This document shows, piece after piece, positions 8,201 through 43,601 of a DNA stretch of 64,000 nucleotides. The position numbers were made by a program, and so were the translations under genes. The notes below the pieces were generated by a model. The model saw only the letters and a list, made by a program, of their open reading frames with translations. It was not told where the DNA came from and did no database searches. Every line of letters begins with the position of its first letter. The first letter of the stretch is position 1. This DNA is from Psammoneis japonica (Eukaryota): contig QPGO01000052.1 of the NCBI GenBank assembly GCA_008632985.1, forward strand, positions 124,001 to 188,000, written 5' to 3'.

Positions 8201-9200
8201 TCATTTTGTTTTGGGTTTTTGCATGTCGAGAGTTCTCTTTTGCTCCCCTCTTGTTGGGTCGTCCAGTCAGACACCCTGACTGAAAGCTTTCGTGCACCAC
8301 TCTCATGCAAAAATTTCACTCAACTGTCCCACTGATCTTTTTAGCCAGGGATCTTACAGGCAAGAACAATGCAGAGGCCTTGAAGGCCGTTGCGTGCTCT
8401 TCAACATTTCATTGCTTGCCGCAGCAACTGTGTGATCATTCAGGGTGGTCTCCTGTGTCTGTTTCTTGACAGCTGCTCTTCATCGTCAAACCCAACACAG
8501 CTGCATCAAGGGAGTGCAACCTTTCAGCTTTAGATTTCTTGCAAGTCAAGAGTTTCCCTTTTGCTCCCCTCTTGTCAGGTCATTCAATTGGGTGCCCAAA
8601 TTGAAAGCTTCTGCGTGCTGTCCTCATGCAACAACTTCACCCAGCAACCTTTCCAATCTTTTTAGCAAGGAATCTCATGGGTGAGAACAGAACGGAGGCT
8701 TTGGAAGTCACACTCTGCAACATTTGATTGTGCGCCACAGCAACTTTGTGATCCTGGGTGGTCTTCTGTGTCTGTTTCTCAGCTCTGTGACCTTTCATGT
8801 CTTTTGTCTCACTGCAGCAACTGTGTGATTTGGGGTGGTCTCTTGTTTCTGTTTTTTGACAGTTCTTCATCCTCAAACCCAGTGCAGCTGCATCATGGAA
8901 GTGCAGCCCTCCAGTTTTTGGATTTCTTGCAAGTTGAGAGTTTCCCTTTTGCTCTTCTCTTGTCAGGTCTTTCAGTTGGGTGCCCAAACCAAAGCTTCCG
9001 CACACTGCTCTCATGCAACAATTTCATCCAGCGACCTTTCTAATCTTTTTGGCAAGGGATCTTGCAGGTGAGAACAGAGTGGAGGCTTTAGAAGTCACAC
9101 TCTTCAATGTTTCATTGCTCGCCACAGCGGCTTTGTGGTTCTGGGTGGTCTTCTGCATCTGATTCTCAGCTCTGCAACCTTTGATGTCTTTCATCTCTTT
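8201..9200. repeat. Degenerate three-copy tandem repeat (periods about 320 and 388 bp)
   Basis: gca.gtc/tg/aagag...ttttgctc..ctcttgt recurs at about 8221, 8541 and 8929. Confidence 0.85.
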
Positions 9201-9499
9201 GGATTGTGTTGGAAGAACATGTGTGCAAGTCAATCAAGATTTGTTCAAAGGTTTGCCATGTGCTGCTCCAGATGTCAGAGGGTGTGGCAAATGGCGTTGA
9301 GGGTGGAATTGATCTTTTGCCATGTCACTTCATCTGAGACAGCAATTGCCATTTTTGGTGATCTCTGAGAGAGCCAAAAAGAAGCAATGCCATAGCAAAG
9401 AGGCTGGAGACCATGGCACCCTTGCTTTCTGCGGCAGCACTGAGATGTGTTCCCAGAGCACATGAGTCAGATTTCTGTCCCATCACATTTTGAAGCCAT

Positions 9500-10560
9500 G
9501 GTCAGGCGACTCTTAATGAAACATCAAGCGGCGCCACCTGGCAATGTGGAAAAATCAGAACATGCAGGGGGGCAGGCGATGGCACCTGCAATGGCTTTGA
9601 ATGTTCTTGGAATGAGATGCAACATGTTCTGTGCACAAACCAGAAACTGCAGTGGGCAAAGTCATGGGGTTTTTCAAGGAGATTCATTTGCCAATTTCCC
9701 CACAACACTGAGCACCAGGATGTTGCTTTCACATGCTTCTCTGAACTTCAGAAACAACTTCTGTAAAAGCCAAAATGTGTTTGTTGTAGCAGCATCACAC
9801 TGTCAAGCTCCACAGCATGTCCAGCCTTTAAGCTGTTGTCAGCAGGTCAAAAAAACCTGCAAGAAACAGTGCATGGATGTGTTGCTTGCATGCAGGGTGT
9901 CAGCTTTCATTTCCCACCCCAGCGGCATCCATCATTTCCACATGTTTTGTTTTCCTGGAAAGCTGGCCACTCATGGCAGCACAACAATGTGTCAAATCAT
10001 TTGCCACAACAAGATGGTCGACATTCCCAGAGCACATTTGCTAGATTCCCATCCCAGCACCACATGCTTTGGAGCCACGGTTGGTTGATTCTCAATGAAA
10101 TGTCAAAAGGTGATGCATGGTGATGTTGAAAAATCAGGAAATGTGTGGAACCACTGCTGTGATGCCTGCAATTGCTTTGCATTTGTTTTTGAAGCAAGTT
10201 GCAACATCTTCAGTGCACACACTCCGTGGAAGCTGCAACAGGCAAAATTGTGGTCCCTGAAGGAGACTCATTTGCTGCTTTCTTTGCATCACCAAGCTCC
10301 AGAACACTGCTTTCTGCATGCTTCTGGGTTTCTCTTTGAAAATGTCTTCCACAAACCTCAAAATGTGCCTGTCATTGCAGTGCTGTGATGCCAAGCTTCA
10401 CAGCTTGCCTTGCCTTCCAGCAGCTGTCAGTGGGTCAAAAAAACCTGCAAAGGTGGTGTGCTGCTCACAGGGTGTGAGCTTTTGTTTGCCCAACCCAGCG
10501 CTGCTGTTGTCTCCACATTTTTCATTTCCCTTGCAAGCTGGGCACCTGTGACAGTGTGAC
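9500..10560. repeat. Degenerate direct duplication, period about 585 bp
   Basis: gaaaaatcag at about 9549 and 10128; ggtcaaaaaaacctgcaa at about 9845 and 10433. Confidence 0.7.
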
Positions 10561-13500
10561 AATTTGTCAAAATCATTTCTCTCAATGAGACAGCCAATGT
10601 TTGCTCAACTCTCAGCACAGATTTCCCAAGTGAGAAAATTGCTGTGTTTGGTGAAGAGATGTTCTGCACCAGAGGCAGCCTGCCACTGATGTGTTCTTCC
10701 TGTCTGAGCAAAAAAGAAATTCCATCCAAAGTCAGCAGCATCTGAAAAAAGCTGACAAAGGCTCAGATGTTCATGCCAAAATGATGCACAGGCAAAGGGA
10801 GTGCAGTGCCATGCAGCCTGCGAGAATTGCAAGGTGAAACAACACATCTTTGTGCAAGGCAACCAGGTCCTCAAGCTCATCCACCTGTTTCACCCATTGC
10901 CCTGCACACTGCCAGGACCATGCGGTGCTCAAGCCAATGGTGTGAGCCAAAGTGCAGAGTCTAGCGGCACCAAGTGTCCATGTCTGTCCAACCCACTGTG
11001 GTTGTCTTCCATGCTGCAAAGAACTGCACTCTTGCTTCTGGCACTCTTTCAAATGCAGTTGCATGTTTTTTGTTGCCAGAGTTGAAAAGAAAGCCACACA
11101 CATCACAAGCACTCAATGCAACAACTCGTTGACAGCATGTCACAGGCAGCAGGACTGACTGGCTCTGATTTTTTTGCCGGCTTGTCTGTCTGTCTCAATG
11201 CCAACCACACTTGGGCTCTTTTCTCCTGCTTGCTTTGGGAGGAAGAAATCCATTGTTGGCATGGCTTCATTTGCACTGTCATTGCTGCTTGCAGATGAAG
11301 ATGACAGCATGAAGTCACCTCAAATTCTCTGATTCTTGGGAGCACAACAGTGTGCGTGCAAGCTGCTGAGGCAAAACATCATTGCAACAGTGTGGTGTTG
11401 TTGCCCCCTGCTCTCCATCTTTGCCACACTGGATGCAGTGGAAAAAAGTTGAGTGGGCAAGTGGCTGCACAGCAGAGTTGCACAGTGAACATGTGGCCAG
11501 TTGAAGCCAATGATTTAGAGTTTGTGAAAATGCCAAATGCACAAACAAGGGTTGGGGACACCTTGTTTTGGTCTGTGACTCCGGCACAGCACCAGAAAAT
11601 GAACAACAGCCAGCACAGCATGTGCAGCTGTGTTGTGTTTGCACCAGTGTGGATTTCTTGCAAGTGCCATCAAGTGGGTTTCAGCACCAACATTTGTGTC
11701 AGTAAAAAGTGCAGAAATTCTGGCTTGAGGCTGTTGCTGAAGACAGAGTTGCTGCTGCTGTGGCAGCACTCTTTGCCAACATCCAAAAGATGCTGTGGCC
11801 TCACTGCCATTTGCTCCAATGCAGCAAATCAAGAAATCCCACATTGGGTGCATTTCTTTCTCCTGGGCAAGTGTAAGAAGTGCTCACCTTGCTTTGCACC
11901 AGCACTCTTGAGCAGCAGACTGGGGCATGCCAAGTGCCAGCAACCATGCCCCAACGACAACAAAAGAAAACACTCAATTTTCTTCAAAGCACAAGGCACT
12001 TGACATGGGTGCTGCTGACTGTCCCAGCTGATCTCTCAATCCAGAAGCACAGAAAGGCACCAAGCTCAAAACTCACAGGTGCCCTGCAAGAATGTGAACA
12101 CCTGCTGGAGTGTTTCTCAAAGACCAGCTTGTGCTCCTTTGCTGTTGAAGTTGTTGGTGTGGAAGAACCAAAACTGGAGTTGGCACTCATGGTTGTTCTT
12201 GGAAAGAATGTCGCCTTGTGCAAGCACAGCTTTGCAGCAGATGAGCATCTAAAAATGCTGCAAAATCCTGACAAGGTGCTTGGCAGTTGTGGCAGCAATG
12301 TGAAGCCTGCTTTGAAGAGGCCAGCTGCAAGATTAAAGAAAGAGTGTGTCACAAGCAAGAGACTTGCACAAAGCATTTGGTCAAAGCCACTGGTTGTGTG
12401 AAAGACTTTCCAGGCAACAAAGCACACAATGACCAGCTGATGGAATTGGAAGACAAAGAAGAAAGCAATGATGAAGCACATTGTTTGGGACCTGACTTTG
12501 ACAGAGCAAGTGGGGCTGGTGCCAGACAGTTGTGTGCAAACCAAATGTGTCAGTGTGCTGCCAGCTCACAAGTTGCATGTTTTACATTTTCAAATCCTTC
12601 CAACCAACTTTGAAAAATAAAGCTTGAAAACAAACACAGCCTTTTGAGACAGATTGTCCATCATGCAAGACACTTCATCTTGTGTGTCACCCAAACATCA
12701 GCTCTCTAACATGCCAAACTTTTCACAGGGAACACATTGTGGTGTCCAGAGTCAAACATCCAACCGACACAAACAACAACGCAGTGGTTGTGTGAAAAAC
12801 AGCAAAGCAACAGCTTTGTGCCCATCAAATCTTCAACAACACAACTTCTGGGCTTGTTGCAAATCACTTCTCTCTGTGCAGATGGTGATGCTTCAAAGCT
12901 GCGACAGTTTTTGGAGGAAACCTGTGTTGCAAAAACCCTTCATTTGAGCTGCAAACACAAGTTGATGATTGCCAGCTGCACCACAGCTGGTGGACACATT
13001 GATGTTGTCTGCAGTGCAACCCTTGCAAGGGAGAAAAATGCACAAGAAGTGTTTTCTGAGCCTTTCTTTGGGAGTCTGGCTGGACAACAACCACCAGTTG
13101 TTGACAACCTGCACTGAGCTGCACATTGTAGAACATTTTCTTGTGGCAACTTGCATGCTTTGCTGGGCTTTAGACTCTGAACAGCCTTGACTGCTTCTGG
13201 GTGCTGCCCTGCTTTTAAAATTGCACATGGCCTGTTCCCACAAACAGCATTTTTGATGTTGACTGGCTGCTGTCCAAGTTCAAAAACCAAGAGGCTCTTC
13301 TTCTCCTGTTTTGTTGTCATCTGCCACAGAGTGCTCCTTGGCTTCTTCTGCATCAAGCACTTGCACTTTGTCTGCTTCTTGACAAAAATCTTTCTGAAGT
13401 TTTCTTGACAAGAATCTTTCTGAAGTTCTTCTTGTTTCTTCAATTTCCCAACCTGCTGTTGGCTCAGCAGCACTCAAATGTTTGAGCATTGTTTTTTTGG

Positions 13501-15199
13501 CTTTTTCAACAACAGATCTTGTTTTTTGACATGCCAAGACCCAGAAGGTCATGCCTTGTTCTGCTGCAAGAGCTCAGCCATTGTGCCCATTTTCACACTC
13601 CCAGCCACACAAGTGAAGGGGAAAGCCATGCAGCCAAGAATCTTTGGAGCATGTCAAGGGGTCAATCTGTTTCAACTGCCTTGTTGCCATGAGACGGTTG
13701 GTGTCATCACAAATCAACTTTGCTTCAAATCATGCAGTGCAGCATTTTTTCTGAAGCTGAGGAGCTCAAGTAAGAAGACCAGCACCACAACCCTCTTGCA
13801 CATTGTCAAGTGACTGGCACTGCAGTTTGTTGAAAGACATTTTGCAGAAATTGCAAGGCTGGCACATGTCTGTGAAAATGGAGCTGTGCAAACAAGGAGC
13901 TGTGTGAACTCTTTCATTGGCCCATGTTTTGCATTGCACAACATGATCATCTCTGGGAGTGCATCAGCTGCGACAGCAGAGAAGGCAGGCAGCAGGTGAC
14001 AGAGGGCAGGGTTGCAGAATTTTTCTTGCACATGTCTTGTGTGCCATTTTGCACATGCAGCACATTTCTTGCCAAAGCAGGCATTGCTGTTTGGACAAAA
14101 AATTCCATGCAAAAACATCTTGCTTTCTCTTCCTGAAGCAAAACAGTGACCCCATTTCTGGGTGACCCCAAAGCCATTGCACAAAATCTCACACAAAACA
14201 AACACCAGATTTTGAACACAACTTCAAAAAACAACACACCGCAGCACCACTGCAATTGCTTTTGTTGTTTGCAGTTTGTCATTTCCTTGTTGGGCTCACC
14301 TCTGCACCAGAAGGGCAGACAACTCAAAGCAGTGCCATTGGGTGCACAGTGGACCAGCTTGAGCTGCTTGCCAGCACATGACAAGCCTGGCAGCAATGCC
14401 CCAACTTGGTGCAAGGAAGTTTGGAGTCAGCAAGCATCAACTCAAACTCAAACATTGGTTTGGATGAGCACAACACTGGCAACATTGCAAGTCAGTGTCT
14501 CCATTGTTGCACCAGCAATGTTGTCAGTGGACATTTTGAGCACTGAACAGGCATTGTTGCCAGTGGCTGTCTTGAGCATTGTGCTGGCAACATTGTTGGC
14601 GGTTGCCTCAATGGTGCTGCATGTTGTGCTGTCATTGTCATTGTGGTGGGTGCCTTGAGCATCACAAACAGCAGTGTTGCTGACCAATTGAGCACATGGT
14701 TGTCAGGCAGTTGCTCCACCTTTGGCATGGATGCATGCGGGGTTTGTGGCCCCTTGTGAAGATCAATGCCAAAAGTCCCAAGAACAATGTGAGTCATCAT
14801 TGGCTTGTTTGGAGCATGGATGGTGCAATCAGGCAGCACAGCCAGCCTCACCATCACAATGCAGAGCTCTCTGATTTGACTCCCTTGAAAACCAGTGGTT
14901 GGATCAAGAAGTTGCCCAGCGTTCCACTGAGCAGACCCCCATTTGAAAGGATCTGTTGCACCTTTTCTGGGTGCTTTGTAGAGAATGTGCAAAGAGCAGC
15001 CATCTTGTTCTATGATGCACAATTAACTTTTCTGATGAGGGACAATGTGCCAACCTGCAGTGCTGCAGTTTGGAGGGTGTCAGTGCTCTGAGACAAGACA
15101 ACAGCAGGTCTTGCTGGTGCTGATCTGGTTGCCACGACACCACCAGAGGGGATTCTCATTTTCCCCAATTTTTAGAAATGCTGGTGTGAGCGGCAGGGG

Positions 15200-15793
15200 T
15201 GTGTTGGAACATCTGGATCACAGGGACCACAAGAAACCTGGGTTCTCTGAGGAAAAGATGCTTTAGCTCCAAAATGTGGTGAACCAAGTGAAGCCACTGT
15301 TTGCTGAAGATTTTTCTCTGTTGCCAACCTTCCATCACCATTTTTGTCTCACACTTTGGAGTGAATCATTTGGCTCACTTGGCTCATTTGATTTGTCACC
15401 TGCTGCTGTTGTCATTTTTGAGTTTGGAGTTTGTGCTGACAACTTCAGGGCAACCTGACAAGTGCCACAGGAAGCCCAGCAGGGCCCCCTTTTGGCAACA
15501 TCAATTTTCTGGTTCGATGTCACCTGGAGGTTGTCAGTGCAAACTTTAAACTCACAAAATGACAACAACAGCTGTCCAGTGATGATGCTGAACAACATGT
15601 CAAGTGACAAACCAAATTGCTCACTCTAAAAAAGGAGGTGAAAGCAGAGGCAAGGGGTTGGCGACAGAGGAAATTCCCTGCCAGAGACCAGTCACTTGAG
15701 TCAACCACATCAGGAGTCAAAGCATCTTTTCCTCAATGGGCCCAGTGCAGGTTCTTTGCAATCCCTGTCCCCGTGACACAGGTGTTCCAACAT
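15200..15793. repeat. Degenerate inverted repeat (arms of about 260 bp, spacer of about 60 bp)
   Basis: 15201-15457 (tgttggaaca...gaggaaaagatgcttt...gttgtcatttttgagttt...ctgacaac) matches the reverse complement of 15518-15793. Confidence 0.8.
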
Positions 15794-17127
15794 TTTTTGC
15801 TGAACAGCTTAACAAAGCCCACTTGCCCCACTTTTGCTCACCTGAAAAGTGCTTGCATGTGCTTGAAGAAACCTCCTGTGCAAAGCAGGTTGATTGTGCT
15901 TTTTGCTGAAATGACATGAGGCAGGTGGGAGTGATGCACAGACTGCACTGCATTCTTGGGTGGAAATCCAGCAGCTGCAAGCAATGAATCTACTTGATTT
16001 TTCTTGCAAAATCACCAAAGTCCACCAGCAAGCATCTTGAGCCTTGCCTTGGGTGATGGCATCATTTCAGTCCTTTCATGATCTCATGTGATGGGCTGCT
16101 TGGCAAAGAAGCCAAGGCAGCACTCTGGTTGACAGCTGCATGGCTCTGGGAGCAAGCAGCAGAAGCCACCCTCTGAAGCATGTGGTTTTGCAAATGCAAG
16201 CACAAGCACTGCAGTTGTCAAAGCCACTCACATGTGCCTCTGAGGGTCCCACACATGCCCTCATCCCAGCTCAGCTCCTGGCACCCAAACAGGGAGCCGC
16301 TCTGCCCCTCTACAAGAATTGCCTCGCCAAGTCAAAAAATGACAAAAGCACACAGGTTTCTGCATGAATTTGGCACAAAACGAGTGCAAAGCTGCCCTCT
16401 GGGCACCACAGAAAAAAAACCAGCACCTTTGATCACTTCATTGTTGCTGCACTCTTCTTTTCATCATTCAACTGAGCTGTTGTTGCCATGACATTGCATG
16501 CCTCCACATCATCTGTCAGTGCTGAGAGATTGCGCTGCCAGAAACAACTCAACTTTCATTGGCTGCTGTTCAGTGCCCTCAAGGGGAGGTGACACTGGGC
16601 TTGAAGGTGGAACATGGCAAAACTGTCAGCATCATGCTGCCATCACCAAGTGAGTGCAACATGACTCCAGCTCTTCTTGGAGCAAAAGAGTTGATGCCCA
16701 TGAAGGAAAAACCAAAACAAAAAGTGGCAAACAAACAGCTCAGTCAATGTGACCACTTGTTGGAGTGGCCAACCAGTGGCAACAGTCACAGCAGCTCTTC
16801 TTGTCAAGCTTGGAAGCTCAATTTGTCCTCATCACATTGTCTTCTCTTCAAAAGTGAAGCTGAGAGATTGCTGGAGCTTGAAGATCTTGAGTTTTGTGGC
16901 AAGAGAAGAAGCAAATTTGCTTTTGGCAGAAGGCACTCCAGTCATTCAACATGTGAGACTGCCATGAGATTTGGCCACTGGCACTGCACAGGAAGCCTGG
17001 TGGGATTTTCTTTTGGCGACATTGACTTGCCAGCTCAACATTCACTCTAAAGAGTTGTTTGCTCATGTTGAGTGCACACCTGTCCATCAGTCCATCAGAA
17101 GATCATAAGATCATTGATGTCTGCACC

Positions 17128-18790
17128 ATGAGCAACAAAGAACATGGGAGGTTTGGAAAAGACCATGATCAACACAAGGGTCATGGTGGAAAAGGCAACA
17201 AGAGCCACACCAAGAGCAAGAAGTCCTTCAAGCATGAAATGAAGTTTTCCATCCTTCAACCCTGAACAGCAACATGTGCAATGCAGCACGCAAAGGTGTC
17301 AAAGAGAAGATCAGCAGATGCACACAGAAGGAGTTTAAACAGGGCAAATGTGTGGCAAGGTCCCCAGAGGACATGACGCATCCTGACTTTATTGCAGAAA
17401 AGCCAAAATTGAAACAGCCAGAGATCACACCCAATGAAGATGACTCCACATGCAAGGCTGACCCAAAGGACATTGAGCACAAGAACAAACAGTGTGAGTG
17501 CAAGCATCACACAGAATCCAAAGATTGCTGTGCCAAGCTGAAACAGTTTGAAGAGAACAAATCAAAGGCACCTGCCATGATTGTGGATGATCGACATCTG
17601 TTCTGTGCATTGACCAAGTCCCTGAAGAACACACTGCAGGTGAGGCAACAAGAGAATGAGTCCATTGCAGAGTGCCTGTCAAACGATTCAAGAACCAACA
17701 AGACTCCACCAGAGATGGTCTGGGTGCTAGCAAGATGCTAAATGGGTTCATTGAGAACATCAAGGAGCACATGACAAGTGGCGCTGGCAAGCAGGCTGAG
17801 CTGAAGAAGATGGCGTTTGAGGCCTGGACTGATTTCATGTTCATCAAGAACAGTGACGACCATTGCTGCAAGACATTGAAGCAAAGTTTTGTGAGAGACT
17901 GTGCAGTCTGGGAAACGATGCATGCCCAAAAGACCTGGACAGAGCAATGGATGCATTGCTCAATCATGAGTGGGGCAACAAGCAGAAATGTGCCAAGAAT
18001 CCTGACCATTGTGACAATGAGAATGGTGAGGACAAGAATGGGAACAAGAGCAAGAACCAGAGCCATGCACAGAAGGGTGGCACACAAGGCAAGACAATGT
18101 GCCACTGTTGCAGCAAGAAAGACCACAAGTCCCCAGATTGCCAACACAAGGACAAGGCAGCTGCCAATGACTGTTTCAAAAAAAGACCAGAAGGAAACCA
18201 GATCCAAGAGGGCAGAGTCATGCACAGATGAGAGATGACAATGATGACCACTCTTTGGTGGACAGTGATGTGAGCATCAATGCCACCAGATTGGCATCAT
18301 CAACCTGTTCAAGCTGGAGCAAGGGAGCTGCTTGGCACGGGTCACAACTGGCCAATGAGTGACCAGAGACAAGCATGAGCCAGACCAGTGTGGGCATTGA
18401 GGCTGATGAGATTGTCCTTGACAACTGCTCTGCCCTTGACATGGCAGCAAGCTGGAGATTGGTGCACAATGTGTGACAATGTGTGACTGGCAAAGATCAA
18501 GATTGGCCCATCCACAAACACAGGAGTGAACACCCTGGACAAGAACTGCACTGTGCCAGGTTGGGGCAACATGAAGCTGGGGTCAAAACCCACAACAGCA
18601 AACATCCTGAGTCTAAAGGATGTGAAGGCCAAGTGCCACATGATGACATGCTGCAAGAACCAAGTGGTGGAGGTGCTCCAGCTGCTGGACAAGAAAACTG
18701 GCAAACAAGTCACAGCATTTAAAGCAAATGACATTGGACTGCTCTTGTGCACGCCACCTTGGCCACAATGGCTGCGGCAGAAAGAGATGC
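17128..18790 (+). mobile_element. Decayed Ty1/Copia (diatom CoDi-like) gag and protease fragment
   Basis: Gag-like stretches (VKEKISRCTQKEFKQG; QQENESIAECL/KRFK; CPKDLDRAMDALLNHEW), zinc knuckle CHCCSKKDHKSPDC, protease-like IVLDNCSALD and ANILSLKDV. Frameshifts and stops present. Confidence 0.75.
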
Positions 18791-29959: not shown

Positions 29960-30230
29960 CTCTGCTGAAATGTCTGGAGAAGAAGGCATTGTCAAAAAGA
30001 GAGTGCTTGACATGTGAGCTCAGGAACTTGCCAGAGCTGATGCTGACAGCCCAATGCACAAGCTGAATGTTCTGCACTTTTTTGCCAGTGTGTGAAGTGC
30101 ACACCCAGTCATTGTGTCTGTGCAGTGCAGGCTGGCTCCCGCTGTGTCATGGCAGGGCAAAATGACACATGTGTCTTGACATTGGCAGTGGACTTCCCAG
30201 GCAATGGCCAAACATGAAGATCAAGCCGCA
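29960..30230 (+). mobile_element. Gypsy-type gag fragment, copy 1 (heavily decayed)
   Basis: gagctcaggaac...atgctgacagccc...gcacttttttgc is homologous to 31180-31460. Confidence 0.5.
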
Positions 30231-31460: not shown

Positions 31461-33432
31461 CACATTGAATGGAGACCAGTGCATCATTTGAGGTGTGCAT
31501 CAAGTTGAAGTTGCCAAAGACAAGTGGGAGGAAGGTCATGCCAAGCTTCTTCCAGGCAACAAAGCTGCAGAGCAAACAGCCCTTGGTGTTGGTGCCTGCA
31601 GCAGCAGCCGGTGGAGGTGCAGAACTTGAGGCACAAGACAACTTCATGCATGGAGCATCACAAACACATCATCCCAACATGCAAAAGATTGGAAATGCAC
31701 CAGGATGGAAGAAGAGAAAAAAGTCTCAACATGGACTGTTGTGGTGTCACAACCATCTGAGATTGCCTTGATCACAGCTTTCTAAAGATTGGCATGGTTT
31801 GGACAAATTGAAGAAGCTTCAGGAGCAGCCACAAAGAGAGAGCTTTGTCCACAATCAATCAAATCTGTTCAAGATCTTCAGTCAGTGCAGCTTTGGCGGT
31901 GACAAGGTCATGAACGCTGAGTTGTCACCAGCAGATGCAGCCCATTGCCAGTTGCAAGCAAGTGAGCTGCTGCAAAACTTTGAGAAACAAGGCTGATGAG
32001 CTTTTGCAAGGACAAGCAACGTGCACATTTGAAATCACACAAACAAGCTGTGCAAACATGGTGTGTGACTTTGACTCCAACAAATTGTTCACAGAGACCA
32101 CGCCAGCTTTCATGGCTCCGATTGCAGCAGATTTGATTGACCTTGAGTTCTTCCACAAGAGAAATGTGAGATGTCCAAAATGGTGTCAAGCTGACAACTG
32201 TTAAAACAGAGGCTCTTCCATGAGTTAAACATGGTTGTTGCTGACATGGTTTTTGGACCAGCAGATGGCAATGAGGACTGCCCTCCTCCCTGCAACAGCT
32301 CATCAACATGCCACACCATTTGTTGTTCCACACCTTGCTTCCAGGCTGTGGCTTTGTCAAGCAGCAGCTGCTTTTGCTCTGTTTCAAAGCTGCAAACTGT
32401 TTTGTGGTGTGTGATGGAATGATGAGTCTGCCCTCAAACTTGCAAGTCCATCCTCTGAACCAGGTTTGACAGGTGATGCAGCAAAAAGCTTCCAAAGAGA
32501 CAGCTTGCCCCACTTGCAGCAGCATGTGAGTGAAGCTGTGGGCAGAGAGCAGGGCACAGTTCCCAGCAGCTGGTGAGAGTGAGGAGCTGACAAAAGCTTG
32601 TGGCTGGCTGGGAGTGTCATGAGAGGGCCCATGGAAGAAATCTGGAGTGCTGCAAAAGGAGGCATCAGCAACAGCCAGATGGAGAGCTTGGCAAGCCCAA
32701 CAAAGCTGTGCAAAGGGCAGAGGTCACCAAAAGTGACAGCTCAGAGGAGCTCATGTTCAGAGAATTCTTAAGTTGCTGCTGTCAGATGATGGTGAGGGTG
32801 CACTCATTGAGTGTGTCACAGCAGGCCAGGAGGAGATGCCTCTTCCCTCATCTCAGTTTCTGTGTTGCATCTGAGTTCTGTTCAGGGTGCATTTTAAACA
32901 TCCCTTCCACTGAACCACTGTTTGTGTGAACCACAGCAACATTTTTTTATTTTGTCCATGGTGTGCTCCTGCATGGTGGTTGCACAGAGCCCATGTGCTT
33001 TTTCTCAACACCAGGAGTGCCCCCATGGCATTTTGTCTCTTGTTCAGATGAGTCAACACATGTTTGTCAAACACAAAAATGTCACAAGGACAGCCTGAGG
33101 ACATTTGAAGACAACTGGCTGTGTTTCTTGAAACAACAAAGATCAAACACAACAAAGTTCCAGCCTGCAGAGTCGCAAGTCAAATGCCAAGTGTGATTCA
33201 TGGATGATGCTTCCAGTCATCAATCTCTGCTTCTGGAAGAAATGTCCATTGAGTCTTCTGGCAACAGCAACCAGAGTGACACACAAAACCGTCAGGTCAA
33301 AATGCAATCTCCAGTCAATTGTGATTGTCATCCTCTGCACTGCATTGTGATGACATCCCATCCTGCAGTGATCTTCTGTGCTGCAATCCTGTCCTTGCAG
33401 TTGATCTTTTGTGTCAAATCCTCATCCAGCAT

Positions 33433-36400
33433 CATGTCTGATTCTGATGCCACTGCTCCCAGAAAGGATCTGGAAATGTTCAAGAAGTTTGCCGAGGCTT
33501 TTGCAGCCATGCAAGCATCCAACGCACATCCACCCATCCCAACCCCCATCCATGGTGAATTGCATCCCTCTTGTGGCATGTGCCTTGGTGGGGCTCTTCT
33601 CTTGATGACACTCTCAGCATTGCCATCCAAAGGCTGTCAAGTCCATCAAGCAATCCCTTTGTGAACAACTTGCTTCAGCAACTGTCTCAAAGTTCATCAG
33701 TCAAATCAAGCTGTCCAACGGTCCAAGCACCAAACTGGACAAGAAAGACTTTGTCAAAACCATCCAAGACCTTGTCAGTTGCACGGGCAAGAAATTTTCT
33801 GCCATTGAAAGAGGACGTCTGTCAGCAAGGTTGTTTGTCTGTTAGACTCCCTTCATGCCATCTCTGTCAGCAACCTTCTTGAGAAGGAGTGCAAGTCTTG
33901 TAATGCTGCTTCAGGTGACAAAGGCTGTGACAATTACAAGAAGGACAATGTCGGTCTCTCTCAACTCCAAGTCAAGTCTCAAATCACGGAAACGTCCTGC
34001 AAGAAGATCAAAGTCAAGTTCAACCACATCAAGGACTTCAAGGATCTTCCAGGGTCAGTGTTGTTTGTGATGGCTCTGGACACTTGCAATGCAAGTGCTC
34101 TTGTTGATGTCAAGTCCACCAAGGAGAAGCTCAAGGCACTGTTGCTCAAGTTCCACCCTGGCAAGGATTGCACTGAGCTTGTGGCCAAAGCTCTTCCTCT
34201 GGCCAAGATTGTGAAGATGGACTGTGTGCTGCTGGTTGACACAGGTTCTGCCATTTTAACCAAAGCATCCAAGACTTCATCCAAGTTCTTTAATCATCAA
34301 GCATTCTTGAAGATGGATGATGTTAAGAAGATGGAACACAAAAGTGTTGTCTCTGCAACCTGGCTAAAGTGCCAAACCACTCTGACTGCACAATTTCAGG
34401 GCCTGTTGGCCACATTGGCTGGATTGCCATGACCCATGACAAGCTCATCAGTGATGAAGACTGGCCTGCCTCAACAGCTAAACTCCCCGAGTCGAGCAAC
34501 ACTTCCATCAAGGACAAGCACTCACCAAGCATGCGTGTTCTGCATGTGAGAAAGAGCACATGGCAGTGCAGAGGGTGAAAGCAGATGAGTCCAAGAACAA
34601 CACAAAGAAGACAGACAGGGGCTCACCATCTCCAAAACCAAAACCTTCCAAGCCCACCTGGCATTTCGTGAACAAGGAACCCACCCTCACTGATGACAAA
34701 GGCATGCTCTGGAAATTGTGTGACAAGTGCATCAACAAGGAAACCAGTGAGATGGGCATGTGACAAGGCCATTCAAGTGCTGAACACACCAGCAAATTTT
34801 CACCCACCTCCAGTGCCGCTGCTTCAGCAAATCTCTCTGCTGCAAATGATCCTTCTGTGGGTGTCCCATTTGGTCCTCCTGAGCAAACAACGGCTCCACC
34901 GATGGACAAGGACTCTGACGCCAATGAAGAACTTGTCCATTGTGGCATGTGGTGTGCTCCTGTTGACAATGCTGTGGGCAGCCCTCCTGTGGTCATTGCT
35001 TCTGCATCTTTCACTCCTGCTCCAATGGCCAAGAGGGAAACTGCCATGGCCACACCTGCTCCAATCTTGGTCAAGACAGTTGACCCCAAAGACACTGACA
35101 ATTTCCACAAGCTCTCCAATGCTCTGTCCTCTTTTAACTTGGAACTGCCAGCTCTTGAGTTGTTTTCAGCCTGCACACTGCATGAGAGATCAAGAATCCA
35201 GTTGTGTTTCATGACGCCACATCAAGTCACATGGAAGGACTGTCAGACAGCATGTTGGCTGACCTTGTGCATGAAGCAAGCAACCCAGCATCTTTTAATG
35301 ACACCTGTGAGAACTCACCTCCAAGCATCCACCATCACTGGTTTGACTTCTGTGATTCTGTGACCCTGAAACCACTTCTGTCATCAATGACTTGCCGGGC
35401 CCCTGCAGATCCCAGACAATCCACTCACGCTCAGAGGCATGGACTGCTTTCAAACTGCCTCCACCGGACACACCTGATGTCCACATTGAAGTTCCCAATG
35501 CACCTGATGACCCTCCAGTCCTCTGCCTGTGCTCCTGCAGAACTGCCACCAGGGTTAAAACCACCACCTGCCGTCACTCTGCCTGAACCTGCTCCTCCAA
35601 CAATGCCAACAACACCGGAATCTCCTCCTGCCACTTCTCCAGAGTTAGCTCCTCCACTGTGCTGTTCAAGTTGATCAAACAAGGGTCAGTTGCTGTCTGA
35701 AAGGTTCATGGACAAAGTCTTCTTTGCTCCAGCAAACTCAAAAGATGAGCTGCTTGGGACTGCAGCTCAGTTGGTGCATCTTGCTGCTCTGGACACCTGC
35801 ATTGATTTGCAGACCTGAAACTTTGATGATCCCAGGGTTTGCGCAAAGGGTTTGTGCAACTGCAAAGAAACACAAGGACCCTGATGTGCCATCCCTGCAT
35901 GAAGCTGTGTGCAGCCACAGGGCCAACAAATGGGTCCATGAAGATTGAGATGAATGCGCTGCTCCACTCGTGCATGGGAAATGGTGCCAAGGACTGATGA
36001 CATGAATGCATTGCCTGGCACATGGGCTTTCTGGCTTAAAAGACTTTCTGATGGTGCACCCTTGAAGCACAAAGCCCAGTGTTGTGTTCATGGTGATTTG
36101 CAGATGTGCAAGGTGTTGATTGTTTTAAGACCTGTGCGTCATGCAATGGTCATTAATTTGGCTTCTCCTCACAATGGTGCTCAAAGAAGGTTGGACCACT
36201 CATCAAATTGACTGTGTTTCCAAGCTGATGTCAAGGAGAAAGTCTGTGTGGAGCCTCCTGAGAGTTTTCAGCAGAAATCAGGTGCTGACTTGGCACCAAA
36301 ATTGTTGAAAGACCTGCATGGACTCTGCCAGTCTCCCAAGTGCTTCTGTGAAAAGCTGCACCATGGATTGATTGAACAAGGATGGATTCAGTCTGCTGTT

Positions 36401-37540
36401 GACCCTTGCATTTGTTTCAAGAAGGGCATGTTGTGCATGGCATGTGTTGACAATGACTTGTTCACCGGAGTGTCATCTGTAGAACTTGAAGCTGAGATTG
36501 CCAAATTGGGTGTTTCCAATGATGAGCAATGCCATGCATTCAACCTGCATGATGCAGGCAAAGTCGGCAACTTTTTTGGCATCAAGAAGATCCAGAAACT
36601 CAAGGATGGCTGCTTTCTGCCAACCCAACCTGGCCCAATTGAGAAAGTGCTGCATGCCACCCAGACAGAAAACTGCAACAGAGCTCCTGCTCCCACACTT
36701 CCTGCACCTGCTGGCAGTGGTTCTGAAGGCCCATCATTCGATGAACCTTGTGGCAACTGTCGGCCCATGGTCGGCATGTTGACACATCTGGCATCCAACA
36801 GCCACCTGGACATTGCCTGTACCACCCACCAAGTTGCTCAGTTCTCCTTTGCTCCCAAGGCCTCCCATGCTGTTGAAATCAAGCACATTCTTTGGCACTT
36901 GAAGGACACTGCTGACAAGGGTCTCATCCGAGCACCCACTGCAGATCATTGGCTTGATTGTCATGTTGTTGCTGATTTTGCAGGACTCTTTGGCATTGAA
37001 GATGGACAAAACCACACTTCTGTCAAGTCACACACCAGTTGTGTTGTTTGTTGTGGCAGATGTCCCATCATCTGGGTGTCCAAGCTGCAGACCCTGGCGG
37101 CACTTTCTGGGATGGAAGCCAAGCATGTTGCACTCTCCCAAGCAATGTGCGATCTCACCCCCCTTTGCAAGATCTTGAAGGAAATTAACACACACATCTT
37201 TGCACAACCGGATGCTCACAACAAGGCAGCTGCCCACTCCGAGGCCTTCCTGCAGGCCAACGACAGCACCGATTCCTCACCCATCAATGCTGCCAACCTG
37301 TCAGCATCTGTTGTGCATGAAGACAATGCTGCTTGCCCCCAGCTTGCTTGCATGCCTAAATTGTCCCCATGAACCAAGCCCATCGGCATTCCATGCCACT
37401 GGTTTTGCACTGGGGTTGAGGCTTTGGAGATCAAGATTGAGCCTGTCAGCTCTGCTGCACAGCTTGTCTGCCATTTTGCTAAAGGATTGGCCACTGATGT
37501 GTTCTGAATTGGTCGTAAAGCCCTCATGGGCTGGTGGCTG
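33433..37540 (+). mobile_element. Decayed Ty1/Copia (CoDi-like) element: gag, Pro-rich linker, RT and RNase H; protease and integrase not seen; no LTR recognised
   Basis: Gag knuckle WKLCDKC...HSSAEH (about 34710-34790); KDPDVPSLHEA; MNALPGTWAF.LKRLSDG...KHKAQCCVHGDLQ; LHGLCQSP; QSAVDPCI; ACVDNDL; CHVVADFAG; WVSKLQTLAALSGMEAKHVALSQAM; VHEDNAAC; ends RKALMGW. Confidence 0.93.
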
Positions 37541-37549
37541 TCACCGCGT

Positions 37550-40500
37550 CTAGAATGCTGCTGTCTTAAGTCTCTCCTTACAGTTTTATGCAGTGGTTTG
37601 CAAAATGGTTTTATTGCGCTCTGTGCAACTGATTATGAAAAACCTGACTGCCCGTTTCATTTTGTTTTCTTCGCCGTTGCTTTCTTGATGGACGTCTTGT
37701 TTCGGCGCTTAAGAGTCCCTCGATCCTTCTCTTCAAGCCTGACGAAGTGAGTGCAAGGCTCAGTGTCTACGAGGACACCATGCTTCGCAAAATATGCCAC
37801 TGCATGCTTGGCCATCACGTTTTTGACCCTGTCCATGCAATCCACGATGACAAGATGTACGCCTTCTTCTTTCAGAAGCAACGCCATTTTACTTCGAGAT
37901 TCTTCACGGCACAACAGTTGCGCCTCAAATCCTTTGCTCGCACAAAAAGGGACGCATTTCTTGGACGCTACCCATTGGCCTAATTCCTTTCGAATCGCCG
38001 CTTTGGACATCTTTAATCCCCTTCTCACGTTTTTGTCGTGAACCATGTTAAGGAAGATAAGACGAAGCATGTCCGGAATGCAATGGCCTGCCGGTGCAAG
38101 CCCTTTGTCGAAGCTCAATCCGGTTTTTGAAGCCTCTGCTTGAGTCATCAACCTAGCGCCTGCACCACTTTTCCATCTCTTGACACGATGTCCTTTTTCC
38201 CAAGGTTTGGCAGCCTTTTCTACAGCTTGCTCAGAGTTCCCGGTCGCAGCAGCAGGTGGAGCCCCTAAATCTAGGCTGTCCAAATCGTCGCCTTCACTCA
38301 CAGCTGCTTCGGTGTCTTCTGTCATGGCATCAGGCACCCCCCCCAATGACAGAGCCACCCAAGTCACTGGCACCTCCGCAGCCACCGGCGGCAATGAAAC
38401 GCGTGGGTGCACCGGCATTGGTTTCTTCTGCTTCCTCTTCTTCATCAGAGTCACAAAGAGCAAGCTGCAAGTCACCCTCGCCAGAAGATCCATTGTAGTC
38501 TCTGTCTCTGTTCAGCAAACGAGACGACATGGTAGAAACTGAATGATTCGAGCAAGTGGAAGTGGACTTGCTTGTTGGATCCGTTGACCCATTGGTCTCA
38601 GTCGCATCAACGGTTGTGTTCGAAGCCAGGCCCAGCCCATCCGACGCTCCTTGAATGGGATGGCCACGCCACCCACCAGCTTCACGGTCACGGGCTGTCG
38701 TGGGAAGCATGGGTGCCTTGGCTGCTTCTTCCTCTTCTTCAACAGAGTCGCAAGCATCAAGCTGCCTCTCAACCTCGCCAGAAGATCTGTTTTCTGCACC
38801 TGCATTCAATGAAATGAGATGATGCCGGCAAGAGGCAGTGTCAACAACAATGAAATCACACAGGCAGTGATGAAAAGGGAATCATCATCTTCTTGCCTGA
38901 AATTCGGTTGTGGCTTGATTCTTTGGACGAAGCGGTGGGAGCACCAAATGAGTCATTGGACAGGATGCCAGCGGCAGCAACAGGTGAAGATCCCAAAGGA
39001 AAGTCACCCAAGGTGTCAGATTCACATTCTCCATCGTTGCCAAAAGATGCATTTTCAGAGTCTGTGTTCAATGAGTGAGATGACACCGATGAGAAGGGGG
39101 TCGCATCAACATTGACAGCAGACAACAGAAGCAACAAGCAAAACGTGGGCAACTGTCCCACCTGCAGTTTGTTTGCGTTTTCTGGGAGAGGGCTCGTTTG
39201 GCAAGCCACCGGTTTCACTTCCTGCATTGGCAGCATGTGCCAATCCGCCGGAAGAATCGCCCATTTGGATTGATGACGCAGCAACAACAGGTTCTGTAAC
39301 TTTGGGCGTGGGATTTTCATCGTCTTCTTGGTTTGCTTCTTTGTCAGGCTCTTGCATGGGGAATGAATCCATTTCATCAAATCTCATTGTGGTCTTGTGA
39401 CAATCATCTCTGCGCTTGAAATTCGGCATTTCCAAATCCATGGTAGAAACGGATGCGTCCGGAGAAGCAGCCTTTTGTTTCCCCGTGTGCTCAGTTGATC
39501 CCGATTTCAAACTTACATCAGGCATCCTGGCTTGGATCTTCCCAAGTTGACTCGTGACAGCGGGTGCGTCCAAGACAACAACACGGGCAGAGCGTGCGTC
39601 CACACGAAACGAACAAGATGTGAAAGTGGTGAGAATAAATTCCTCGTCAAGAACAAGGCACAGCGAAACAAACCAAACCATTTTCCTGCCTGTGATGTTC
39701 AAGGCATGCTCTTTCGACAGACCGGCCATTTTTGGAGTTCCATTTGCAGCTGAAGGTGAGGCTTGGGCAGCAACATGTGCACCTTCATTGGTGGCAGTGT
39801 TCTCGTTCTCGGAACGACCGCACCGTTCACCACCACATTGCAAAGTTCTCTGTTTCTTGGGAGCTGCAGCTTTGCCGGTTGGGACAAGTGGAGGAGCTGG
39901 AACTGTGTTTCTTTGCGAACGACTCATTTTGAATTCACAATTGCTCACAGACGTCTTGGCTTGGTCCGTCCCACTGGGACTTGTGTTCTTCTTGGCAGTC
40001 ACACCATCAATTACATCGCACTCTTCAGGAATGCTCGGAAGGGGATTGAGTGCACAATGTGGTTTCTTCTTCTTGACTCTGGCTTTTATTTGCACTCTAG
40101 ACTCAGGCTTGCTTGCAGCAGAAGTGCTCACAGCAGCGGCGACGGGGTTGCCGGAATGAGCGCAGTGGACACGCAGACGATTCGCACCATCACAAAGGAC
40201 CCCCTTCTCGTTTGGAGCAACAGCTTCCTGTCCTGTGGGAATCGGCGGCTTTGCTGTGCCAGCTGCAGCAGCAGCAGCGCGAAGCTCACTTGTTTTCTCA
40301 GAAGCCATGTTCTGACGCAATCTTCGACAGTCCGCATCACGGGCAGCAGTTGCTTGTGGTGACAGGGTGCCAGACCGTTTCAAATGAGCGCCACTGCTGA
40401 GTTTTTGAGATCCAGTGTCAGTCAGTGTTGCGCCAAAAGACATGGTCGTCTTCTTGCGAGCACCAACAGCTTTGATTGTTCTCACGGCTAAGTCGGGGGC

Positions 40501-41530
40501 TTGGCATTCACGGCGACCATCGGAAGTGATCCTGCAATGTCCTTCCCAAGGGCTCCATTGCCACTTCTGTTTGCTGTCAGGTGTCTTGGCTTTGCCAGCA
40601 CCACGTGGACTCTTCTTCTTGCTGGCAGCAGCGCCTTGTGCATTTCCTGCATTCACATCATGATTGTTTTGATGGTTGCCCTGCTTNNNNNNNNNNNNNN
40701 NNNNNNNNNNNNNNNNNNNNNNNNNNNNNNNNNNNNNNNNNNNNNNNNNNNNNNNNNNNNNNNNNNNNNNNNNNNNNNNNNNNNNNNNNNNNNNNNNNNN
40801 NNNNNNNNNNNNNNNNNNNNNNNNNNNNNNNNNNNNNNNNNNNNNNNNNNNNNNNNNNNNNNNNNNNNNNNNNNNNNNNNNNNNNNNNNNNNNNNNNNNN
40901 NNNNNNNNNNNNNNNNNNNNNNNNNNNNNNNNNNNNNNNNNNNNNNNNNNNNNGAAGCTCCATCTGTGCCCACATTCAACAAATGAGATGAAATTGACAA
41001 GAATGAGTTTCATGATGACAATCATCATCATGCAGGAAACAAACAAAGCGAGTCACGATCTCACCTGGACCTCGTTGGCGCTTCTTCACGGAAGATTCTT
41101 CTGGGAAGCCGCCAGCTTTGGCGCTTCTGTTCAAAACTTGTGGCTTTCCAGCGGCAAACTCACTCGTTCGTTTCACATGCGCTGCACGTGAAGATGGCAT
41201 TTGCTTGACAGCATGCGATTTGCTTGTCCCATTTGTGGCAGCAGCACGGCTTTGACGGTCTTGAGTGTGGGACAATGTCGAGTCGGGCAAAGGAATGTTG
41301 TTGGCAAAATGGTGCCAGGGAGACAGCATCTTTTCATTTGATGGCTTCGCTTCAACAAACAGCTTCCACCTTTTGTCCCAATTCTGGTCATTGTCTCGTT
41401 TGCCCTTCCTCCGTTTAGACTTTCCATTGTGCGAATCCCGAGTGCGCTCTTCACAGAGGGCATTTGTTGATGGTGAATCCTCCCATGGTGAGTCCTCATC
41501 CAATGACGACGGTGCCGTGAATGTCGCCAT
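37550..41530 (-). pseudogene. Inverted, mutated and 3'-truncated paralog 'B' of gene A
   Basis: MATFTAPSSLDEDSP...NALCEE..DSH..KRRKGKRD matches A MPRFTAPSSSDEDSP.ANPLYEK..DSH.SKRRRGKRD. GHCIPD, KGFEAQ, EGVHLVI and HAVAYFAKHGVLVDT match the A C-terminal domain. Upstream sequence is also homologous; intron-2 splice sites are destroyed. Confidence 0.88.
40687..40953. other. Assembly gap (N run)
   Basis: Continuous Ns. Confidence 1.
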
Positions 41531-43601
41531 GCTTGATTTTAATGGCCTGCAAGACAACCTTCAAGCTTCACTTGCGGGAAAGACGAAAACAAAGCATGTT
41601 TGTCAGAGAGAGACAGAGATGGGGAGACTTCCACAAAGAGGAGAACGGACAAATGCAACAGCGACACAAAGAAATTCTTGCCTCTCGCCAGACGGAAAGG
41701 ACAACGGTTTTTCAAGTCGATTTCAAACTCGACACTGCCGGTAAATCCGAGCTTTGATTTGTCGTTTGACACCTGCCAGAGCGTCTCTCAACGTTGCTGC
41801 AAACAGAAGTGACACACGAGACGCACGACAAGGAAATCGAACGCAACAACAATCAGAATGGAACTGCACAAGACCAACACTCACCGCTTGGAAGCCAACA
41901 AAGAAAAACAATCGACCAGCAACAAAACGGCTGAATTTGGAAATTTGAAAATTGTGAGCCAAGTCGCGGACGGCCCAACGGATTTCTCGCTCTGGCGAGA
42001 ATCTCGTGGTAGTAAAATCAACGTAGGTTTTTCGTAGCCACGAATTTCGAGCAAACTGAGCGCGCGGTGCGCGCGTGGCCGACCGAATGTTCGCCCTGAA
42101 TGAATCGATGTTGTGTTTGTCGCTGTTGACATCCTCATCAACCATCAACCACCGCATCGTCGATCACAGCACCAATTATTCTCGTTAGTTCGAAAGTCGG
42201 AAATTCTTCAATGTACGTATGGTCGAATCGACTTGACCATACCGCCAGTTTTGAAAGCATACAAAAGAGTACTTGAGCAACGGGAACATTCACCATACAA
42301 TGTACCGGTAGGCCCTACCTGTACAAGGGCTTATTGAGCATCCCAAACAACGAAACGCTTTCGAGCACAGTTCAGTGTGGAGTGCAGTGTGGGGCAAGTT
42401 TCGTAGACAAGATGATACCTCTCGAGTTTGATTATTTGATGGATGGATTGGATGATGACTGCCGGCCGTGTTGCGTAACAACAAAAAGAGTTGAAGTAGC
42501 TACCCACCAGAACGGAAAAGCGACGCGCAACTTGCCTGCGCGTCATTATCGCTCCTGAGCAGGTCGAGCATCCCAGTTTGAAGAATCGTCTCGTACTGAA
42601 TTAAAACGGGTGTACTGTATGGAGCACCCGACATCAAGGAAACTAAAATTCACCGCTTCGGACGCACAGGTCGAGCTGGAAAAGAGGGCCAAGGTTTGTT
42701 GGTGCTACTACCCTTTGAAGAGACCTTTTTTTAAGACAGCGAGGACGGCGAAGACGCTTGGAATCGATACTGTACCCGTCGAGTTTACCGGTGATGAGAG
42801 TTCTGGCTTGCTCGCAGAAAGATACTGCGCAAGTCCTCCTCCGTGCGAAGACTCCTTACGGTGTTCTGCATCCTTAGTATTGCAATCCCTTGGAGCCCGC
42901 TGTCAGATCGTTTGAAAGGTCATAGTGGGCACTGAGATCTGTGTTGCCTTTTTCCAATGAATTTGGACTCATGAAAGACGGTGCGGCACTGATGCTTTCT
43001 CTAATGGATCAAAGAACCAATTCCCACTGTTTCGAAACTCGGAAATTCTTCACCGATTTTCCTGAATGAGCCAAGGCGTTTGAGAGGAGTCTTCCAAAAA
43101 TTTCAAATTCCTGTTTCGACAGCTTCATGACACTAGTCTGTATGAATCTCGAACGTCCATGCACCATGCGTAAAGAGTTGTGTCTGCTTCATGTGTTTCC
43201 TTCGTTGTGGGCTTTCCAAGACCCCCTGCATTGGCAAAGAAAACCAGCAAGTCTCTGTCTTTGTGAAGCTTTTGCAAGTTGGGTAAGTTTTGGTGCAGTC
43301 CAAAGGTGTTGCATCCGGCTTGGTTACCTGCCGGTATTTCACATTGAAAGGAGTCTAGCTAGCTAGAGAGAGGGTCCTACAATCACACTGCAGGCTCGCA
43401 TTGCATTTTTAATTTGCTATGGCCGTGTGGTGCCGTGTGGTGGGTCTGTCTGTGTAGTACCGTATGTAGGTCTGTGCTGGAACGTGGAGCCAGACAGACC
43501 GTCACTGTTTTATGTTGTACTAAAAGCTGAATAAAAATATTTCGAATTTAACGCCTGCCGTACGACCACTGAAACAGCGAGCACCACTTTTAGCTTTCCC
43601 G

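Follow-up and report, generated by a model that had tools for sequence, protein, structure and literature searches.

The closest described counterpart of the DNA analysed here comes from the chlorarachniophyte Bigelowiella natans, in whose mutation-accumulation lines an integrated giant virus and a virophage took 231 of the 302 nuclear mutations (Mettrop et al., bioRxiv 10.64898/2026.01.13.699255). As given in the available text of that preprint, 230 of these 231 viral-region mutations turned A into G or T into C, in every case at TpA; they arose at about 1,000 times the background rate, in some lines only, and the genome holds 124 TpA-poor, CpA+TpG-rich clusters, with reverse transcriptase (RT) and DDE domains enriched in TpA-poor genes. 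The authors propose an ADAT2-type adenine deaminase, which is unproven, and the available text mentions CpG 0 times (bioRxiv 10.64898/2026.01.13.699255). We analysed a 64,000-base stretch of DNA, hereafter the window, from an apparent diatom (Psammoneis japonica, assembly GCA_008632985.1, contig QPGO01000052.1, positions 124,001–188,000; numbered here from its first base), in which blocks that include Copia-type retrotransposon fragments have lost nearly all of their TpA and CpG. A first-pass annotation of the window, made from its letters, knew of no described mechanism for such a loss at TpA, a statement now outdated because TpA-only A>G/T>C hypermutation is reported as measured in B. natans (bioRxiv 10.64898/2026.01.13.699255). 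We consider it probable that the window records TpA hypermutation of the B. natans type acting on silenced repeat blocks, together with a slower decay of CpG, after the sequences were in place.

Other systems resemble parts of this picture. Fungal repeat-induced point mutation (RIP), like the process considered here, is a context-specific transition hypermutation at the level of DNA that kills transposons permanently; it is a C:G>T:A process, mostly CpA>TpA, which raises TA and lowers GC content. Editing of retroelements by ADAR or APOBEC enzymes likewise leaves retroelement copies with clusters of A>G or C>T changes, and is strand-specific, limited to the element and completed before insertion. 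Diatoms have DNMT4 enzymes, found in 31 of 60 surveyed species, which are related to the fungal RID protein and whose function is given as unknown in the available portion of the source (PMC9998398). In the accessible parts of two further reports, 5-methylcytosine (5mC) is confined to the transposons of P. tricornutum (PMC12344493) and co-localises with heterochromatin marks in diatoms (PMC4504042). Amphioxus BjADAT2 (ADAT2/3) acts on DNA as a deaminase of A as well as of C, with GAA and TCG in hairpin loops as its contexts, according to the available text (PMC10354150). Literature searches, which covered few subscription journals, returned no report of TpA depletion or hypermutation in diatoms, and Maumus et al. 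2009 (PMC2806351) contains 0 occurrences of hypermut-, deamination or dinucleotide.

We mapped composition as observed/expected (o/e) dinucleotide ratios in 2-kb windows, refined by a 500-base map and by locating individual TA and CG sites, and took the gene-bearing positions 42001–60000 as the flank comparator. We distinguish four segments, two of which lie in an orphan element present in the window as copies A and B:

8201..37515, unstranded: domain 1, TpA and CpG both nearly gone; its left edge is an N gap (7274–8200), and the real start may lie in or beyond that gap

37516..38272, unstranded: island where TA and CG densities are normal, with a depleted block on either side, inside copy B of the A/B element

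38273..42009, minus strand: TA-only zone, copy B of the orphan A/B element; contains an N gap (40687–40953)

61024..64000, unstranded: domain 2, TpA and CpG depleted (TA o/e 0–0.09, CG o/e 0.12–0.28), continuing past the window end

Across 8001–38000 the 2-kb windows have a TA o/e of 0.02–0.18 and a CG o/e of 0.04–0.34, with TG at 1.64–2.13 and CA at 1.50–2.18; taken as a whole, 8201–37515 has ratios of about 0.06 for TA and about 0.1 for CG, compared with 0.33–0.84 and 0.87–1.06 in the flank windows. The annotation's observation that TA is as scarce as CG over some 30 kb, beside ordinary neighbours, is thus confirmed. The 29,300 bases from 8201 to 37500 hold 132 TA and 200 CG sites where the flank rate predicts 1,125 and 1,688, the TA shortfall having a Poisson log10 P of about −310. 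The loss is balanced by gain: relative to the flank (TA 38.4 and CG 57.6 per kb), domain 1 (TA about 4.5, CG about 6.8, TG 112 and CA 119 per kb) shows a TA+CG deficit of 84.7 per kb and a TG+CA excess of 82.1 per kb, and all remaining dinucleotides shift by at most 19 per kb. The fall of TA and rise of CA, at an unchanged GC content (48.2% in domain 1 vs 49.1% in the flank), set this DNA apart from the products of fungal RIP.

The losses are sharply bounded. The annotation had drawn a single affected span, 8201..42005, within which the depletion is real; the double loss, however, ends at about 37515 and is followed by the normal island and then by a zone (38273–42009) lacking TA only, and a second block begins at about 61024. 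In the TA-only zone TA o/e is 0.03–0.15 and CG o/e 0.60–1.11; between 38501 and 40686 this amounts to 4.1 TA per kb (11% of flank) and 42.6 CG per kb (74% of flank). TA density returns sharply to normal at 42010. Loss of TpA is thereby limited to discrete regions with boundaries at about 37515, 38273, 42010 and 61024, three of these four being placed within about 270 bases. At the start of domain 2 the TA boundary lies within 61023–61611 (at about 61024) and the CG boundary at about 61150, some 130 bases further in; in the final 500 bases of domain 2, CG o/e is 0.71. Within domain 1 both depletions run without a break across unrelated sequence and do not follow individual elements.

Two further stretches are of intermediate composition. 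A small patch of domain 1 at 19700–20500 is intermediate in TA (10 sites in 20001–20500) and in CG (13–15 per 500 bases), and could be a more recent insertion or DNA that was partly protected. Beside the TA-only zone, the ordinary-looking, gene-bearing DNA of 43001–46000 has a TA o/e of only 0.19–0.49 with CG near normal, which may come from the TpA process spilling over slightly or from local composition alone.

The direction of change can be read from two retrotransposon fragments with recognisable relatives:

35666..37534, plus strand: Copia-type RT/RNase H fragment of family 1 (fragment 1); Pfam RVT_2 at an E-value of 3.6e-07, just below the curated cut-off; relatives at 40–49% identity

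25102..25904, minus strand: Copia-type pol C-terminal fragment of family 2 (fragment 2); relatives at 45–64% identity; inside a stretch of very high depth in DNA run X1

We aligned fragment 1 with 7 relatives and fragment 2 with 13, and scored as conserved those columns of fragment 1 in which at least 80% of relatives agree. Fragment 1 retains none of 10 conserved tyrosines, 5 of which have become Cys (TGT) and 5 His (CAT or CAC), and none of 12 conserved arginines (5 His, 2 Gln, 2 Cys, 1 Trp and 2 Lys), compared with 139 of 195 other conserved residues. Its open reading frame (ORF) has no Tyr among 386 residues, where the relatives have 3.0–4.4%; Tyr is encoded by TAY alone (Y, C or T), so a TA-free frame can carry none. 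Fragment 2 likewise keeps 0 of 8 conserved tyrosines (3 His, 2 Cys, 3 other) and only 2 of 15 conserved arginines (6 His, 4 Cys, 1 Gln, 2 other). Pooled over both fragments, 15 of the 18 conserved tyrosines, all lost, are now His (8) or Cys (7), and 2 of 27 arginines survive, with 21 of the 27 replaced by His (11), Cys (6), Gln (3) or Trp (1). Conserved and catalytic Tyr and Arg residues are replaced exactly as single transitions predict. The altered peptides that had drawn attention to these losses are all present, LHGL at 36314, CVDN at 36443, KHKAQ at 36065 and GCHHI at 21673, as well as ETATHGSE (25497–25520) and THCVDA (25626–25643) on the minus strand.

The relatives themselves are of ordinary composition. 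Across 80 metagenome loci encoding them, the median TA o/e is 0.64 and the median CG o/e 0.79, with TA o/e at or above 0.36 in 79; together with the Tyr content of the relatives' proteins, this indicates that related elements are not TA-free. Judging from these alignments, the depleted DNA is once-normal sequence that has been mutated.

The exceptional locus deserves separate mention. A relative of fragment 1 on a metagenome contig (L023:1–1789) is the sole one of the 80 to carry the same signature, with a TA o/e of 0.04 and a CG o/e of 0.20. The 5 TA that it still has are all in-frame Tyr codons (TAC), 4 conserved tyrosines have become Phe, 5 of its 6 retained arginines use AGR codons (R, A or G), and the frame is broken by one stop. 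It may stem from a transposon lineage whose evolution was under pressure at TpA and CpG, or simply be a half-decayed copy.

Beyond these two fragments the depleted DNA yielded little. A Pfam scan of 136 ORFs of at least 110 residues gave RVT_2 as the sole transposon match in depleted DNA, looser profile scans (34 and 22 ORFs) added nothing usable, tblastn with the relatives found no pol fragments beyond the two Copia pieces, and a protein atlas search with a 519-residue ORF returned no usable match. The description of the 30 kb as transposon debris accordingly holds for the two Copia fragments; with so few family matches, it is demonstrated for about 3 kb of domain 1 alone.

The orphan element provides a paralogue comparison, as its second copy lies outside the depleted blocks:

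1..4022, plus strand: copy A of the A/B element, of ordinary composition (TA o/e 0.40–0.64, CG o/e 0.84–1.37), the unmutated comparator

Copies A and B are 66–67% identical over their main matches, and a search of 1.84 billion representative proteins with the longest copy A ORF (424–1377, 318 residues) returned 0 matches. Where copy B is depleted, TG (12) or CA (5) now stands at 17 of 25 copy A TA sites, and in the reverse direction all 3 TA of depleted copy B are also TA in copy A (0/3 exchanged); in the normal island of copy B the exchange is near balanced (7/24 vs 3/11). A/T>G/C differences occupy 20 of 48 positions at TpA versus 53 of 319 at other A/T sites in depleted copy B (p=1.7e-4), so that the rate at TpA is raised, whereas the undepleted island gives 9/49 at TpA versus 30/224 elsewhere (p=0.37). 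Identity between the copies is 0.74 in the island versus 0.72, and recent conversion from copy A therefore does not account for the island. Tyr and Arg losses, the A/B pair and mass balance together uphold the annotation's central proposal of directional TpA>TpG/CpA and CpG>TpG/CpA change in dead transposon DNA.

In the same pair the targeting of repeats in the sense of RIP, which the annotation had suggested, is not in evidence. The depletion boundary cuts within copy B, only part of which is mutated, and copy A is untouched; the duplication trigger of fungal RIP acts on copies above a threshold of length and identity, and these two are only 66–67% identical.

We read the loss of TpA and the loss of CpG as separable processes with different kinetics and shared targets, and not as one coupled dual mutator. 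Their separability follows from the TA-only zone, where TA has fallen to 11% and CG to 74% of flank; a 3.7-kb zone that has lost its TA and keeps most of its CG is at odds with the earlier view of one dual process, although the accompanying argument that a separate process is required at TpA stands. If both dinucleotides decay exponentially from flank densities, the TpA rate would be at least about 7 times the CpG rate. If the residual TA is at equilibrium, TA loss would be about 50 times faster per site than back-transitions from TG or CA, and the same assumption for CG would put its loss at about 34 times back-transitions.

The TpA process also has a flanking-base preference, expressed below as the fraction of flank density that remains:

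ATA/TAT: 0.03 in the TA-only zone, 0.03 in the saturated domains

GTA/TAC: 0.08 in the TA-only zone, 0.05 in the saturated domains

CTA/TAG: 0.10 in the TA-only zone, 0.13 in the saturated domains

TTA/TAA: 0.19 in the TA-only zone, 0.29 in the saturated domains

The order, with TAT and TAC lost most and TAA least, repeats in two separate zones, and TTAA holds 38 of the 132 TA that survive in 8201–37500. CpG loss is without such a preference in the saturated domain, where all four NCG contexts are equally reduced, to 0.10–0.17 of flank.

On this basis we propose that a first, fast process would convert TpA by A:T>G:C transition to TpG or CpA, on either strand equally and within sharply bounded domains. 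Its chemistry would most likely be enzymatic deamination of adenine at 5'-TA in DNA. A second, slower process would convert CpG to TpG/CpA, most simply by deamination of 5mC, as the CG-methylated, heterochromatic state of diatom transposons would lead one to expect. Where both have saturated, they would leave almost no TA or CG, no Tyr codons, few CGN Arg codons and TGA as the sole stop; where the fast process alone had time or access, TA would be gone and CG mostly kept. The pattern at CpG resembles 5mC decay in that CpG gives TpG/CpA on both strands, so that Arg CGN codons here become CAY, CAR, TGY or TGG. Vertebrate genomes have a CpG o/e of roughly 0.2, and the loss in domain 1 (about 0.1) is deeper.

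The strongest competitor to this two-process proposal is a single deaminase of the ADAT2/TadA kind with dual specificity, acting on adenine at TpA and on cytosine at CpG in the same targeted chromatin. Precedent exists in the amphioxus ADAT2/3 family, a natural enzyme family that deaminates A and C in DNA, has TCG as its preferred C context in the available text (PMC10354150) and belongs to the candidate family for B. natans. The boundary of TA loss falls almost together with that of CG loss at about 37515 and again at 61024/61150, and TCG/CGA is the most reduced CG context in the TA-only zone (0.72 vs 0.81–0.89, raw values from 75–86 sites per class). In the saturated domain, however, TCG-specific CpG loss, the mark of an ADAT2-like enzyme, was not found, as all four NCG contexts are lost alike, and the TA-only zone retains three-quarters of its CG over 3.7 kb at a tenth of its TA. 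The amphioxus enzyme, moreover, prefers adenine in GAA, not TA, and acts in hairpin loops where the changes here affect TpA on both strands of a chromatin domain (PMC10354150, available portion). B. natans itself changed A:T at 230 of 231 positions, with none reported at CpG in the preprint's available text (bioRxiv 10.64898/2026.01.13.699255). We regard a single dual-specificity enzyme as unlikely.

Chemistry on thymine could produce the same outcome at TpA. In such a scheme a modified T (5-hydroxymethyluracil or 5-formyluracil, made by a JBP/TET-type enzyme) in silenced chromatin would pair with G and yield T>C; 5-formyluracil mispairs with G, and at a self-complementary dinucleotide A>G and T>C would look the same. 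Literature searches, none of them aimed at thymine modification, turned up no diatom report, and in the sole measured system with this signature the authors' candidate, itself unproven, is an adenine deaminase according to the available text (bioRxiv 10.64898/2026.01.13.699255). We find attack on thymine distinctly improbable.

If mutation had occurred on DNA in place, as we propose, independent hits should be visible between local duplicates: two copies that mutate one ancestral TA or CG independently will half the time give TG in one and CA in the other, seen as an adjacent double mismatch. Three such repeats in domain 1 illustrate this:

8421..9191, unstranded: 387-bp tandem repeat; TG<->CA makes up 8 of 16 adjacent double mismatches

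9450..10578, unstranded: local direct repeat pair; 22 of 44

22399..23078, unstranded: local direct repeat pair; 10 of 18

Over six repeat pairs in domain 1, TG<->CA swaps constitute 58 of 120 adjacent double mismatches, compared with 6 of 86 in ten other repeat pairs of the window. These swaps indicate that the mutations arose in the genome after duplication, and not in RNA or cDNA before insertion. Strand symmetry holds here: domain 1 contains 3,286 TG and 3,496 CA, and the coding strands of the two Copia fragments show 7 Tyr>Cys and 8 Tyr>His replacements. Strand-coordinated clusters of the kind left by a processive single-strand deaminase were absent from domain 1, both by runs (3,386 observed, 3,388.7 expected, z=−0.07) and in 1-kb bins of TG/CA (chi2 42.2 on 29 degrees of freedom).

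Editing before integration, in which transposon RNA or cDNA is hyper-edited (ADAR-like A>I, APOBEC-like C>U) and then inserted, draws on the fact that what can be recognised is retrotransposon sequence; animals are known to carry edited retroelement copies. Against it, both strands are equally affected within one element (fragment 1, 5 Tyr>Cys and 5 Tyr>His), genomic local duplicates carry independent TG/CA outcomes (the 58 of 120 above), depletion runs unbroken over 29 kb of mixed or unrecognisable DNA and an orphan non-retroelement copy, and a boundary falls within an element. The changes here are strand-symmetric, domain-wide and made in place, unlike those of ADAR/APOBEC editing, and we give an origin before insertion hardly any credence.

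Just outside domain 1, at 5659–7273, lie two tandem arrays (units of about 205 and 328 bases, copies 91–96% identical), the second cut by the gap. Their 30 polarised singletons comprise 8 CpG transitions, 4 CpA>TpA and 3 TpA>CpA, among others, and the TpA process was not seen in these arrays.

The depleted bases are supported by contigs of DNA run X1, which span 30 of 30 bins of 20001–40000 with a summed contig depth of about 113–434 in 28 of them and match the window at about 99%; the longest piece is 2,397 bases with 19 differences. A second run, X2, contributed no more than 3 short pieces, and no RNA run was listed for this DNA. Since X1 contigs reproduce the depleted bases, an assembly artefact is excluded insofar as X1, which may be the same data as the assembly, is independent of it. 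None of the three results by which the annotation would have been refuted (A>G/T>C no higher at TpA than at other A/T sites, intact copies already TA-free, bases unsupported by reads) was obtained. X1, which may represent a haplotype, another strain or several close paralogues, shares a fraction of 0.73 of 31-letter words with the window and diverges from it by about 1%, with 160 transitions and 42 transversions among 202 differences. Among the 40 differences listed out of these 202, 5 adjacent CA<->TG swaps account for 10 positions, single CpG<->TpG/CpA changes for another 10, TA>CA for 1 and other changes for 19. Double hits on one dinucleotide between sequences about 1% apart suggest that the process went on acting once the X1 and window genomes, or copies, had split.

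Two bins (24670–26003) have summed X1 contig depths of 28,166 and 12,582, compared with about 113–434 in the other 28. Depth of this order indicates that sequence at least 90% like the mutated Copia piece is present in very many copies.

An artefact of sequencing or assembly, or a foreign element that had always been poor in TA and CG, has next to no probability in our view, for although X1 may be the assembly's own data and the TA-poor metagenomic relative retains in-frame Tyr codons, X1 contigs, at depths of about 113–434 in 28 of 30 bins, reproduce the sequence at about 99%, the replacements of conserved Tyr and Arg are those expected from single transitions, 79 of 80 relatives' loci have ordinary TA, and the loss is mass-balanced by gain of TG+CA.

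Set beside B. natans, the window shares the conversion of TpA to TpG or CpA according to strand, in discrete regions of invading DNA, and the occurrence of TpA-poor, CpA+TpG-rich clusters with retroelement domains. The host is a rhizarian there and apparently a diatom here; the targets are viruses only partly depleted there (Rho TpA 0.45, one region undepleted) and transposon blocks saturated at an o/e of about 0.06 here; CpG goes unmentioned there and is co-depleted in domains 1 and 2 here; and a mutation rate was measured there that here is deduced from sequence alone. The signature is probably best filed as the TpA hypermutation already described in B. natans, met here in a new lineage, at saturation and atop what would be ordinary CpG decay in methylated transposons.

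Several points weigh against attributing these domains to B. natans-type hypermutation plus slower CpG decay. Silencing, 5mC and any deaminase at these domains are things that we infer. The preprint, without CpG in its available text and with less-depleted viral targets, is no proof that the two systems would share an enzyme. As TpA is self-complementary, attack on A and attack on T cannot be separated from base order. In the A/B pair A>G at TpA occurs at 14 of 23 sites and T>C at 6 of 25, a strand bias in small numbers that is not predicted by a symmetric model. The normal island at 37516–38272 inside copy B is without explanation, domain 1 outside about 3 kb of Copia-type sequence is without a family match, and a single coupled system would likewise fit the near coincidence of the TA and CG boundaries of domains 1 and 2.

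More tentatively, and with rather less than even confidence, we suggest that a TpA-editing defence may be common to widely separated marine protists, Rhizaria and diatoms at a minimum, and that in diatoms it may act on 5mC heterochromatic domains, to saturation, and shape transposon evolution. The codon usage of the TA-poor metagenomic relative hints at such shaping by TpA pressure. If this were so, hypermutation of the B. natans type would also work in diatoms, which are major primary producers of the oceans, and transposons there would be killed outright through the loss of every Tyr codon. A directed A:T>G:C mutator would then be a widespread eukaryotic genome defence and not the curiosity of one lineage, and such domains could be recognised in any genome simply from sequence, by a TA o/e under 0.1 that is offset by an excess of TG+CA. 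The identity of the enzyme is concretely constrained by the saturated domains, by the TA-only zone and by the flanking-base order.

There are consequences for annotation as well, since TA-free DNA yields long spurious ORFs in all frames and profile searches miss its transposons. In domain 1 TAA and TAG are nearly gone and only TGA stops remain, and many ORFs of 150–370 residues occur on both strands in overlapping frames; given the scarcity of TAA and TAG stops, we take these long ORFs to be by-products of composition and not genes.

The flank carries genes. Two paralogous genes at 45346–46841 and 49320–50905 encode 2-oxoglutarate-Fe(II) oxygenase domains (PF13640, E-values 4.5e-14 and 2.2e-15) and are 84% identical over 389 bases; their type is that of prolyl hydroxylases, and nothing evident ties them to the mutation process. 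For thymine oxidation beside the domain, genes of this type (PF13640) are no real support. At 51565–53136 lies an intact pentatricopeptide repeat (PPR) gene, a single ORF of 524 residues. Among the 120 relatives listed for its protein, 11 carry an organism name (9 diatoms, 1 dinoflagellate and 1 'Lepto...'), at 24–36% identity; from these distant relatives of one gene a diatom is the likeliest source and B. natans an unlikely one, and Bacillariophyta is the commonest phylum among the nearest clusters of the protein atlas.

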